Sequence record: NZ_CP015380.1
Direction: 5' to 3' (one strand)
Length of the DNA stretch: 64,000 nucleotides
From: a plasmid
Part shown: positions 11,741-64,000 of the stretch, in pieces
Layout: every line of letters starts with the position of its first letter
Numbering within the stretch: the stretch's first letter is position 1
Notes under the pieces: model-generated
Database searches by the model: none
The model's input: the letters and a program-made list of their open reading frames with translations, nothing else
Told to the model about the DNA's origin: nothing
Made by a program: the position numbers and the translations under genes

Positions 11741-13407
11741 ATGCGCCGAATTTCACCGCGAGCTGGATACTATAGCGCATTAGTACCAGCTCTTTTTTTT
11801 GGCGGTATAGTGATGACCGTTTACCTGCCCAACATGGGAGGAAGTGGGCTATCTTTACCCCTGAATATCCTGAGTTGGATAGCCTTGTGCTGCTTTGCGA
11901 TACTTATCATTCAGGCGCCTAGAGTCTGGCGGCGGTATCGCCGATCAGCATCACTGATCTGGCTTTATGATGGATGTGCGGTGCTGGTTATTCGAGCCCT
12001 ATTGACCCCTTTACCTTGGTTTAACGACGCACTGATCGTCGCAATTGGTATAACCGCCGGATTATCGTTCTACCGTTTATTACTCCAGTTACCGTGGCGG
12101 CGGCAACACCTCTTGGCGGTACTCTCCACAGTGTGGATAGCATCAGTTTTGCAGTGTTTCATCGCTGTTATTCAGCTATTTCATCTAAAAGCAGCGGCGT
12201 GGTGGGAGTTTTCACCCGCGCAGTTACGCCCCTATGGTATTTTCCAGCAGGTTAATGTCTTAGCGAGCTTTATCGCATGCGGCATAGCAGCCACGCTGTT
12301 ATTGCTTTTATATCGCAGCAAAACTATCCCGTGGATGCGCGCTCTGCTGCATATCAGTCTCACGCTGCAAGGTTTTATTCTTTACGCATGCCAATCACAA
12401 ATTGGCTATCTGAGTACGGCGTTTGTCATACTCGCCTGCTTAGGAATATTTTGGCAGCAGCGTTTTATCATCTTTTCCGCAATCATAAGCTTGGTAGCTG
12501 GGGGCATCCTGTCGTTTGCCGTGCATGTTTGGCTACAGTTTCCTACCGTAGTTCACACCGACAGTACTCATACTCGACTGTTAATTTGGCAGCATAGCTG
12601 GCAGTTATTCAGTATGCATCCGCTGTTTGGGTGGGGCGTTGGCCGTTTTGAGTCCGTTTTTCTACATCAGTTTGGCGGACAAATCACTAACGTTGGCATC
12701 AGAACCGTCAGTCATCCGCATAATGAAATACTTTTATGGCTGGTTGAAGGGGGGGATTTACCGCCGTAGGAATGTTAATGCTGTTAATGGCAATCATCAC
12801 GCTTTGGCTAAAAGGGGGACGGCTTCAACGTGCCATGCTGCTAACCGCCTCTCCTGTTGCATTTCATATGATGACGGAATTTCCCTTATATCAATCGGCC
12901 CCACACTGGATTTTACTGATCGTTCTGCTGCGCTGCGCGGATCGTCCGTACTCGACAAGCACCGTGCCAAAGTCCATGAAATGGATCCGTGGAGGCATGA
13001 TATTTTTCACCGTATTCGCCGCCGGTGTTTTAACCCAAACCCTATACCTACAGAATCAGCTAACGATCGTTGAAAGGACTGGCACACAATATGATCTCCC
13101 GCCCCGTACAGTTTGGCAGACGGTATTGCAGCAGGATCGATATGAGTATGATCGACAGATGGGAGAGTTATTACGCTTTAATCACGTTCAGGATATTAAC
13201 GCATTGCGCAATTTTGAACATTGGGCTGCAGGCTATACTCTACGCCATCCAGACAACAATCTGTATGCCGTCCGTATTCAAATTGCGACATATTTAAACG
13301 CTCCAACTCAGGTTGAAAACCTTACCGATGAAGCTCGTTGGCTGTTCCCAGCAGATTCTCGGTGGACAGCGTATCTTGATGCTAAAAATGATAGTGGAAT
13401 AGACTAA
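11741..13407 (+). pseudogene. O-antigen ligase family (Wzy_C) polytopic membrane protein with C-terminal periplasmic domain, interrupted by a -1 frameshift at a G7 tract (12749-12755)
   Basis: Multiple transmembrane helices and the Wzy_C motif …HPHNEILLWLVEGG. Adding one G gives …LVEGGGFTAVGMLMLLMAI…, which continues into the 12772-13407 ORF, for an intact protein of about 555 aa. Confidence 0.65.
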
Positions 13408-14449
13408 AAATAACTATAAATGGTCAGGATGGATATAAATTAATAGATGTTATCGTTGTCAATTGTTTTTAAGTTGAATTAATTCCCATCGATGAAATAA
13501 AACTGGATTTTACTCCTAAGTAGTAGTAATAAAAATTAACATTTCATAACTAGAATGATAGGGGTTCTTTTTTTATGAAATATGTTAACGGTGTATTTTG
13601 AATGAGTATTTTTCTTATGCCATAAACAATAATAGAAGATTACAATTAATAGAAAATACTGTAACTATTTATGGTGGAGGAATTAACTCGATTATATCTA
13701 GTGTTAACTGTGTGTCGAAAGATTTTATTCAGAATGATATATAAGTATCCATCCTTGTTTGTGAAATTGTGAAGTCTCTCCAAGATATTAGTATGGTAAT
13801 TAATTATGAAATAGATATAAAATATTTTATAGTTCCAAGAACGTAGGCTATCGCATTCATGCCATTCAGTGAGTTGTAATACACTGTTGTCTGCCATCCA
13901 TTAGGATGATATATCCGATGAGTTCCATTAACCAGTGATGGTTCACTTATTTCACTTATTTCACTTATTTCAGTGTGTTCAGATTGACATCCTGTCGAGT
14001 TTACATCCAGTTATCTTTGCAATTATATTTTTATACGAGTTGCCTGTGCTGCTTGGTGATAGCATTTGTACGTTTGACGGAATAATATATACTGGTTCGG
14101 TGATGGAATCATCGTTTAGATTCAAGAATACTAGTGATAATGCACGGAACTAGAGGTTTTTTAGATCGGATAATAACACCATAAAAGTAGATGTTCGATG
14201 AAGTTTTAATAGGATAGAGCCCCTATTGCAGTAGCGCAGTGACCCAGACTACTACTAACTGAGTCGCTGAATAGATATCAAATATCATAAATTAACGTAC
14301 AATGAAAATTATATTAATTGAGTTTCTTTTATACATAAAATATATAAGTACCATCAATACGTTGAACATCTTTCGTTTCACGCTCAGAGCTAAGAAAATT
14401 TCATCCCATTTTTCTAATGCAGATAGATAGCCAATTGAATCGCTTTCGT

Positions 14450-14800
14450 CTTTATCGAAACGCTCGTCGTGATTATGCTGCCGGGGGGAACAAGAATCTG
14501 GATAGTGGTCGGAGTTATCGACATACGAAATGGGTTCAACGATCTAGCATCAAAGGTACAGAATGCGCTGAACCTGTACTGCAGTAACAAGTTGGCGTAG
14601 AGCGACAATAATATTGCGGAAAACGTGTTGCTGGGAGTAGCTTTGGGTCGAAAATATTTGTTGTTCGCAGGCTCAGACGAAAGTGGGGAGCCTGCGGCGA
14701 TACTATACTTGCTGATCGAGAGCTGTCGGGGAATTAGAATTTACCAACTCTTATATCTCTTGATAGCCACATGTGGGGGAGCTTTCACGAAATAGCGCTT
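14450..14800 (+). mobile_element. IS66-family transposase (TnpC) C-terminal remnant
   Basis: Frame 3 reads …IAENVLLGVALGRKYLLFAGSDESGEPAAILYLLIESCR…. This matches the conserved IS66 TnpC motif (…DNNxAENALR…GRKNWLF.GSD.GGERAA..YSLI…). It is interrupted by stops. Confidence 0.45.
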
Positions 14801-61769: not shown

Positions 61770-62615
61770 TTAGTCATTCTCTATTGATACACGAAGCTTT
61801 CTTAACGCCTTATTTTCTAATTGCCTTATTCTTTCAGCTGAGACACCATATTCTTTTGCTAGCTCATGCAGCGTAAGTTTCTTGTCATTTAGCCAGCGAG
61901 AATGAATGATATGCTGACTTCGTTTGTCTAAATCATTCATTGCTGATCCTAGTTTATGTAATAAGTATTTTTTCCAATCATTAGCTTCGATATCACTAGC
62001 AAAATCTGAGTTCCTATCGTGTAAGTATGGAGACAAAATTAATACGTTGTCATCATGGCTACCTGTTTCAAATGCCATATCTGCTGCTGCTAATCGCAAT
62101 TCCATATCAATAACATCTTGTTCAGGTACTTCTAGTTTTTTTGAAATTATGTCTACTTCATCTTTAGTCATCCAACCTAGATGCTGTTGTGATTTCCGTA
62201 AGTTGAAAAATAATTTCCGATGAGATCTTTTAGTTACAACTTTAATAATTCGCCAGTTCCGAAGAACATATTCATGAATAGCTGCTTTTATCCAATGAAT
62301 AGCGAATGAGGCTAGACGTATACCTAGTTTTGGATCAAAGCGATCAATCGCTTTCATTAGTCCTAAATTTCCCTCTTGAATCAAGTCTATCAGCGGAAGA
62401 TGATACCCTTTATAATCCTTTGCAATATATACGACAAAGCGTAGGTGTGATAACACAAGCCTTTTAATTGCGTATGAATCGCCATGTGAATAGGCCTCTT
62501 CGACTAACGCTCTCTCTTCATCGGCACTTAATCTAGGATAGGATTTTATCGTGTTCATATATAAATAAAGAGAGTCGTAGTTTTTAACAAATAACTCACC
62601 ATTCAGTATACACAT
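61770..62615 (-). CDS. RpoH-like alternative sigma factor (sigma-32 paralog)
   Basis: Collinear with E. coli RpoH through region 2 and the RpoH box (…LSADEERALVEEAYSHGD…LSHLRFVVYIAKDYKGYHLPLIDLIQEGNLGLMKAIDRFDP…QHLGWMTKDEV…SAERIRQLENKALRKLR). Not in the ftsYEX-rpoH context. Confidence 0.85.
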   Translation of the reverse strand: MCILNGELFVKNYDSLYLYMNTIKSYPRLSADEERALVEEAYSHGDSYAIKRLVLSHLRFVVYIAKDYKGYHLPLIDLIQEGNLGLMKAIDRFDPKLGIRLASFAIHWIKAAIHEYVLRNWRIIKVVTKRSHRKLFFNLRKSQQHLGWMTKDEVDIISKKLEVPEQDVIDMELRLAAADMAFETGSHDDNVLILSPYLHDRNSDFASDIEANDWKKYLLHKLGSAMNDLDKRSQHIIHSRWLNDKKLTLHELAKEYGVSAERIRQLENKALRKLRVSIEND

Positions 62616-63050
62616 TAAAAAATCCTATATGGTTATGCTTGTACCATGCACTAAGATTATAAGTGCTAATAATTATTCACTTTTAAGGAATGAATCATAT
62701 TCATGGTTTATTCATGGCGTTTTCTTCATGTAAAATTCAACTCTTAATCTATATGGTGCTGGCATTATATTAATTGCTCCTATGAATACAAACTTGTAAT
62801 GCTCATATTTATGATGTGCTAACACTTGAACATAATTAGAAATATATATTCGGAATTCCGTTCTTTTATTTTACCGGTAATTCGAAATGCCGGAAATATT
62901 GATATCTGTTTTATAGGTAGTACGATTTTTTTGATTCCGATCAATAACTTTAATATTTGCATCAATATTATTGGCGCGCGATTAGTGTATGCGATGACAA
63001 TTGTTTTTTAATTTAAAAATTAAAACCGCTCTAAAACTTCTGGTATTTGA

Positions 63051-64000
63051 GTGGTTAATTTACTGATGCAGGCTGAGATGAACAATAAAATTATCGATAA
63101 AACAAAAATTAATGAAACATCTATGTGGTATAAGACATGCAGAGATCTGTTGTCTCAAGCTGGGATAAAGATTAATGGAGATAGGGACTATGACATCCAA
63201 GTATATAATGATGATTTTTTCAAAAGAGTAATTCAGGAAGGCTCACTAGGATTAGGTGAGAGCTATATGGATGGTTGGTGGGATAGTGATAAACTCGATG
63301 AATTCATGTGTAGAATAATAAAAAGTAAAGCTGATGAGTCAATAAAAATCAATATGAAAGATTTATTTAGAATCTTTGCTGCAAAAATTTTTAACATGCA
63401 ATCTCGCAAAAGGGCCTGGATAGTAGGGAAAGAACACTATGATTTGGGTAATGATTTATTTAACAAAATGCTAGATCCTTATATGCAATACTCGTGTGGT
63501 TATTGGAATAATGCCAATAATCTCAAAGATGCGCAGTCGGATAAGTTAAAGTTGATTTGTGAAAAATTAAAGCTAAAGAAAGGAATGACATTACTCGACA
63601 TCGGTTGTGGCTGGGGGGGCTTGCTGCCTATGCCTCACAAAACTATGGAGTAAAAGTCTTTGGCATTACTATTTCAAAAGAGCAAAGAGACTTGGCAATT
63701 GAGCGCTGTAAATGTCTAGACGTTTCTATTGAGCTTATAGATTATAGAGAGCTAGATATGGAGTTTGACAGAATAGTTTCTGTTGGCATGTTTGAACATG
63801 TAGGGCCAAAAAACTATGATGAATATTTCACCATGGTAAATAAAAACCTAAAACCAAATGGAATTTTTTTATTACATACAATTGGTTCGAATGAAACTAA
63901 AATTAATGTAGATCCTTGGATTAATAAGTATATTTTCCCTAATGGATGTTTACCTTCAGTAAAGCAAATAGCTGAAGCAAGTGAGCCATTTTTTGTTATG
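63051..64000 (+). CDS. cfa: cyclopropane-fatty-acyl-phospholipid synthase, interrupted at a G7 tract (63613-63619) and running off the window end
   Basis: …FFKRVIQEGSLGLGESYMDGWWDSDKLDEF…AWIVGKEHYDLGNDLF…DIGCGWGG matches E. coli Cfa. After the G7 run the reading frame changes, and the next frame continues …LAAYASQNYGVKVFGITISKEQ…VSVGMFEHVGPKNYDEYF…. Confidence 0.85.

Follow-up and report, generated by a model that had tools for sequence, protein, structure and literature searches.

Frameshifts in three genes of the plasmid record NZ_CP015380.1 are very probably artefacts of homopolymer undercalling

Background

Are the frameshifts that interrupt three genes on the plasmid of sequence record NZ_CP015380.1 features of the DNA, or did they arise when the sequence was assembled? 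The stretch analysed here, 64,000 nucleotides (nt) long and called the window below, carries a pglL-type gene of the Wzy_C group, a gene for a trimeric autotransporter adhesin and a cfa gene (cyclopropane-fatty-acyl-phospholipid synthase), which are broken once, three times and once, respectively, each time at a homopolymer run. A sequence-only reading of the window had described these five breaks and had preferred an assembly artefact to slipped-strand phase variation as their cause. The comparison with near-identical plasmids presented here indicates that the five frameshifts are very probably assembly artefacts, produced by homopolymer undercalling, and not features of the DNA.

The question can be answered without the sequencing reads, by setting the lengths of homopolymers, genic and intergenic, against those in independent near-identical assemblies and by applying the same test to those assemblies as the control. 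If taken at face value, the record would lead to three accessory or virulence-type genes (a protein O-glycosylation ligase, a 1942-residue adhesin and Cfa) being miscalled as pseudogenes, and phase variation might wrongly be claimed for Hafnia.

Results

We gathered 38 stretches of near-identical plasmids, many of them through exact-protein look-ups of intact neighbour genes, and most of the matches were 99.6-100 % identical. These relatives are derived from independent NCBI isolates, ENA metagenome assemblies, Logan assemblies of SRA runs and JGI metagenomes; they include the complete 110-kb plasmid OZ061321.1, the drafts JTET01 and LAZG01 and others, and assemblies from infant-gut metagenomes and SRA runs. 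The source names of the relatives point to Hafnia alvei, and the window fits a family of H. alvei plasmids of about 110 kb, resembling OZ061321.1. It is marked as plasmid, not chromosome, by a ParA/ParB pair and remnants of F-type tra genes. When the pglL and cfa regions were compared by megablast with PLSDB 2024 and with complete E. coli genomes, no match was found. The PLSDB matches were limited to backbone and insertion sequence (IS) pieces, with the best H. alvei matches at 80-92 %, and the closest PLSDB backbones likewise belong to Hafnia plasmids. A scan of one genome per species with Cfa as query gave only distant homologues, of at most 65 % identity, and no plasmid copy.

All five tracts were found where the sequence-only reading had placed them (Table 1), and one added base per site restores the full-length genes, that of cfa as a frame open to the end of the window. 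In three-frame translation, each tract marks a switch of the open frame into one of the neighbouring frames. At all five sites the run is one base longer (n+1) in every relative compared.

Table 1 Positions of the features discussed, and lengths of the contracted runs in the near-identical relatives (labels such as L001 denote single stretches)
Feature	Position	Strand	Length in relatives	Remarks
ParA/ParB pair	271-2500			
Chaperone-usher fimbrial operon	4168-11050			
PglL-family O-oligosaccharyltransferase gene (Wzy_C), predicted	11813-13407	+		split in the window into 11741-12769 and 12772-13407
G7 run	12749-12755	+	G8 in L001-L005 (5/5)	breaks the PglL/Wzy_C gene
G5 run	14775-14779	+	G6 or G7	intergenic; window shortest (contraction of one or two bases)
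T6 run	16877-16882	+	T7 (5/5)	intergenic
YadA-type trimeric autotransporter adhesin gene, predicted	19132-24957	+		1942 aa (amino acids) in one open reading frame after repair of three runs
G5 run	19945-19949	+	G6 in L001, L004, L011 (3/3)	first adhesin break
Tandem array in the adhesin gene	20144-23845	+		9.7 copies of 381 bp, 3.7 kb, 96 % matches
A4 run	23997-24000	+	A5 in L011-L020 (10/10)	second adhesin break
G4 run	24128-24131	+	G5 in L011-L020 (10/10)	third adhesin break
A8 run	25854-25861	+	A9 (9-10 of 10)	7-14 nt upstream of the ATG of the EAL-domain gene
tra remnants	30704-35588			
CcdAB	37660-38210			
A7 run	45712-45718	+	A8 (10/10 sources)	intergenic
T7 run	60445-60451	+	T8 (5/5)	intergenic
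T6 run	60479-60484	+	T7 (5/5 by alignment; 2/2 by exact flanks)	intergenic
T6 run	63004-63009	+	T7 (5/5)	upstream of cfa
cfa, plasmid-borne, predicted	63078-64000	+		PF02353 CMAS; runs past the window end
G7 run	63613-63619	+	G8 in L006-L010, L120, L121 (7/7)	breaks cfa inside the GCGWGG motif

With one G added, the pglL frame reads ...LVEGGGFTAVGMLMLL... and gives a product of 531 aa when counted from position 11813, or of 555 aa when counted from the first ATG (11741); the shorter form equals in length the 531-aa product that is present on 39 contigs. This product of the relatives contains the Pfam domains PF15864 (PglL_A), PF04932 (Wzy_C) and PF11846 (Wzy_C_2), and homologues of about 550 aa, named as members of the PglL family, occur across Enterobacterales. 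By its domains and its length, those of a membrane protein of about 530-550 aa, the gene is predicted to encode a PglL-family O-oligosaccharyltransferase. A JGI metagenome scan for the pglL tract found nothing.

The repaired adhesin frame terminates in a YadA-type membrane anchor sequence, and the corresponding products of the relatives match the Pfam families YadA_head, YadA_stalk and YadA_anchor; the gene is accordingly named here as a putative YadA-type trimeric autotransporter adhesin gene. It is called intact in OZ061321.1, at 1815 aa against 1942 aa in the repaired window. Apart from the three frameshifts, the adhesin gene carries two substitutions that are private to the window, and because three frameshifts are accompanied by only two such substitutions, it is not an old pseudogene. 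At position 23993, four bases upstream of the contracted A run, the window alone has T for A, a synonymous change (GTA to GTT), which may be a second local consensus error and not a true single-nucleotide polymorphism.

For cfa, the addition of one G leaves the frame open from 63078 to the window end, with GCGWGGLAAYASQNYGV. The 383-aa Cfa of the relatives aligns to E. coli Cfa (6BQC) over residues 15-383 with E = 2.9e-183, and the window gene, including its GCGWGG motif for binding of S-adenosylmethionine, is predicted to encode a cyclopropane fatty acyl phospholipid synthase. A JGI metagenome scan for the cfa tract gave two contigs, both with G8, which are counted among the seven relatives in Table 1. 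The match to E. coli Cfa that had been proposed from the sequence is thus borne out, whereas the accompanying argument, that an artefact is indicated by damage to a housekeeping gene, is weakened because cfa here sits on a plasmid.

The five breaks are only part of a larger set. When all indels that distinguish the window from its relatives were tallied, two internal repeat arrays being left out for ambiguous alignment, at least 12 runs proved to be contracted in the window, so that the five sites stand as first described while the list of affected runs was incomplete. Five of these runs lie in coding sequences and seven outside called genes; one of the latter precedes the ATG of an EAL-domain gene, at about 25868 as inferred from the gene calls of the relatives, and the open reading frames around the contracted G tract at 14775 match no Pfam family. 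All 12 window-only changes of run length are shortenings and none is a lengthening (sign test, p ~2e-4). For G/C runs, grouped by length, the contracted fraction was 2/2 at 8, 1/3 at 7, 1/9 at 6, 1/27 at 5 and 0/111 at 4 bases; for A/T runs it was 1/3 at 9, 2/8 at 8, 3/20 at 7, 0/65 at 6, about 1/171 at 5 and 0/439 at 4 bases. Runs of at least 4 bases make up 4868 of the 64000 bases (7.6 %), and the probability that five random one-base deletions would all fall in such runs is p ~2.5e-6. The location in homopolymers alone cannot separate sequencing error from polymerase slippage, because both favour homopolymers. No significant strand bias of the errors was detected (5 G against 0 C; runs of at least 5 bases number 35 for G and 20 for C).

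To every source we applied the same strict test, which scores a run whose length differs from that in at least three others that all agree. By this test the window has 9 runs of unique length among 2313 compared, all of them shorter, as against 3 among 16,536 for 29 relatives pooled and none among 2009, 1490, 1080 and 956 runs, respectively, for the four best-covered relatives. The private branch of the window carries 12 indels and, in 46.6 kb, 12 substitutions, of which 8 are transversions and 4 are transitions, whereas among the relatives themselves there are 241 polymorphic sites and only 6 runs of varying length.

Three tracts vary among the relatives, all in AT-rich non-coding DNA: 14775-14779 (G6/G7), 17516-17524 (T7/T8/T9) and 43198-43203 (A6/A7). 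Since those at 14775 and 17516 vary among relatives, the comparison can detect real tract polymorphism. The T tract at 17516 is located about 550 bp upstream of a 312-aa open reading frame that precedes the adhesin gene; when it was checked as a promoter spacer, no promoter-like site was found to overlap it, and promoter-like sites were no more frequent than in shuffled sequence.

In the relatives, PglL (531 aa) and Cfa (383 aa) are each called in a single intact frame, and two intact Cfa alleles occur on 6 and 21 contigs. Neither the gene index nor a collection of about 15 billion proteins contains the exact truncated products that the window would encode (11813-12769, 12772-13407 and 63078-63653). 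Look-ups of further products specific to the window, namely the usher, the traD fusion and the traI remnant, gave no entry either.

Explanations of the frameshifts

The preference for homopolymer undercalling expressed in the sequence-only reading is upheld by four results: the n+1 length in all relatives at all five sites, the one-way shortening of 12 runs against none lengthened, the lack of a comparable excess in the relatives, and the failure to find the truncated products anywhere else. Most likely, the sequence of an H. alvei plasmid was put together from long reads, short-read polishing was lacking or ineffective, and one base was lost from the count in some homopolymer runs, either by the base-caller or at the consensus step. 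Inside a gene, such an undercount would show as an apparent frameshift, as in pglL, three times in the adhesin gene and in cfa; between genes, it would pass unnoticed. As judged from the relatives, the real plasmid almost certainly carries G8, G6, A5, G5 and G8 at the five sites, in this order along the window, with the genes intact.

The window passes unbroken through two repeat arrays, one of 3.7 kb (381-bp units) and one of 3.6 kb (366-bp units), and this contiguity suggests a long-read assembly. The recovered short-read contigs either stop at the borders of the first array, at about 19976 and about 23745-23940, or contain it in collapsed form, with products of 493 or 653 aa. In MinION assemblies, indels have been reported to be mostly false deletions, in homopolymers of 2-8 nt and most often of 4-5 nt (PMC12007338). 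This published profile fits both the short tracts (A4, G4 and G5) and the long ones in the window.

Several points weigh against undercalling. No near-identical relative covers about 6.3 kb of the window (1-1063 and 27789-33070), which lies outside the audit. It is from contiguity only that we infer the sequencing platform, and the n+1 lengths expected in this isolate's own reads are carried over from the relatives. The isolate belongs to a distinct lineage with 12 private substitutions, so that it does carry real private mutations, and true slippage, too, occurs preferentially in long runs. Moreover, a number of long runs are uncontracted in the window, namely T9 at 17516, A9 at 37782 and 51397, G7 at 37411 and C7 at 51779. 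Because several of the longest runs kept their length, the undercalling would have been stochastic or partial and not systematic.

Could pglL, the adhesin gene and cfa be true recent pseudogenes, lost by one-base deletions under relaxed selection, during laboratory passage or in a lineage deficient in mismatch repair? Real decay does occur elsewhere on this plasmid (DUF932 fused to traD, traI with an internal and a 3' deletion, the missing traX, finO and repA, and a ParB-N/PsiA remnant), real indels concentrate in homopolymers, and the isolate has private substitutions. We nevertheless consider this account very unlikely, because the private ratio of indels to substitutions is 1:1, compared with about 6 variable runs to 241 polymorphic sites in the relatives, because all 12 events are deletions, because three of them fall in one gene that has acquired only two substitutions, and because intergenic runs are affected at the same rate as genic ones. 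The loss of mismatch repair leads overwhelmingly to transitions and to several substitutions per indel. A mismatch-repair mutator lineage was rejected in view of the 8 transversions against 4 transitions and the 1:1 ratio of indels to substitutions.

Slipped-strand phase variation, by which contingency loci (the G tracts of pglL and cfa and possibly the three tracts of the adhesin gene) would have been sequenced in the OFF state, had already been judged the less likely cause from the sequence, and the relatives agree: the genic tracts are invariant among them (5/5, 3/3, 10/10, 10/10 and 7/7), and whereas the ON products were found on 39, 6 and 21 contigs, none of the OFF products is among the 15 billion proteins. 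In its favour, long G runs of the slippage type (G7/G8) occur at two of the sites, two of the three genes encode surface structures, and two other tracts of the plasmid, at 14775 (G6 or G7) and 17516 (T7, T8 or T9), vary between relatives. When a length of about 7 or more was taken as the criterion for high-frequency slippage in G/C runs, the tracts of pglL and cfa reached it and the three adhesin sites did not; the latter (G5/6, A4/5 and G4/5) are too short for high-frequency switching. The tracts of pglL and cfa lie in mid-gene, near codon 313 (of 531) and codon 180 (of 383), respectively, and five OFF states together with seven intergenic contractions, all in one direction, are unlike independent switches. 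Phase variation is therefore highly improbable as the cause, and we give no more weight than this to the stronger form of the proposal, that the short tracts are real and the plasmid-borne G8 runs of pglL and cfa are slippage-prone switches caught in several simultaneous OFF states. If true, this would be an uncommon instance of poly-G contingency loci carried by a plasmid of Enterobacterales.

Programmed frameshifting or transcriptional slippage, by which the full-length proteins would still be made from truly short tracts, is scarcely credible even though the downstream frames are open and intact and G7 or A-rich runs can support slippage in some systems, for three of the runs measure no more than 4-5 nt and non-coding runs are contracted too; it was rejected because all relatives are in a single frame, with no conserved out-of-frame arrangement.

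The value of the undercalling explanation is chiefly one of quality control: the assembly should be polished before any analysis of pseudogenes or contingency loci is made on it, and pglL, the adhesin gene and cfa should not be listed as either.

Other features of the plasmid

Beside the genes treated above, the window contains a LuxR-type regulator gene, ssb, truncated TraI, elements of the IS110 and IS1 families, CcdAB and a gene for a 2180-aa inverse autotransporter. At its end, a cluster of stress type (59233-64000) comprises an MscS-family channel, a LuxR-type regulator, a small YdfZ-like open reading frame, a 281-aa sigma-70-family factor and cfa; its G+C content of about 32-35 % is far under that of the rest of the plasmid.

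Large deletions have caused real gene decay, unrelated to homopolymers, in traD and traI and in the leading region. It affects the intervals 28473-28873, 30704-32254 and 33071-35588, and has left a ParB-N/PsiA remnant and an open reading frame in which residues 1-126 of DUF932 are fused to TraD. In traI there is an internal deletion of about 1.7 kb with its junction at about 33319, and a further junction, at 35574/35575, removes the 3' end of traI, traX, finO and the IncFII repA, which are carried by the relatives. The plasmid looks transfer-defective. Another difference that is not a homopolymer event is a tandem duplication of 9 bp (TTCACTTAT) at 13942-13950, present in the window only and lacking in 5/5 relatives, which is probably a real strain difference.

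The inverse-autotransporter gene harbours the second in-frame array (53951-57563, 9.9 copies of 366 bp). The product length varies among the relatives for both array genes, and the inverse autotransporter also occurs as a 1710-aa allele with a different domain set. A C7 run (51779-51785) occupies codons 4-6 of this gene (MKKSPPPF...); it is in frame in the window, and C7 was found in five matching stretches from four sources. Such a position is classic for a contingency tract.

The IS110-family transposase gene (36258-37268, minus strand) is split into a 97-aa open reading frame with the DEDD_Tnp_IS110 domain and one of 236 aa with Transposase_20. Because the gene is split in this way in most relatives with the element, the split is a real shared feature and not an assembly error.

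Comparison with known systems

The window resembles the simple-sequence contingency loci (poly-G/C phase variation) of Neisseria, Haemophilus, Campylobacter and Helicobacter in having G7-8 tracts in surface-related genes, where one base switches the frame. It differs from them in that its tracts are invariant among relatives and lie in mid-gene, three of them being only 4-6 nt long, in that identical contractions occur in intergenic A/T runs, and in that the OFF products are not found elsewhere.

With the host-restricted or decaying replicons of Enterobacterales, in which pseudogenes form, it shares homopolymer frameshifts in accessory genes, and real deletions are present on the plasmid too, in the transfer region and the leading region. 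Unlike in such replicons, the three genes bear no substitution load, their frameshifts are not shared by relatives, and they contain neither nonsense mutations nor insertions nor IS hits; the direction and rate of the changes are out of line with the relatives.

The third system is the undercalling of homopolymers by long-read (Oxford Nanopore R9-type, PacBio continuous long reads) or flow-based platforms. Here a difference is that several of the longest runs in the window are correct (A9, T9, G7 and C7), so that any polishing would have been partly effective. The likeness extends to the one-base deletions in homopolymers with a risk that rises with run length, to coding and non-coding runs being affected alike, to the changes being private to one assembly in genes that are otherwise identical to their intact relatives, and to an assembly that is contiguous through long repeats.

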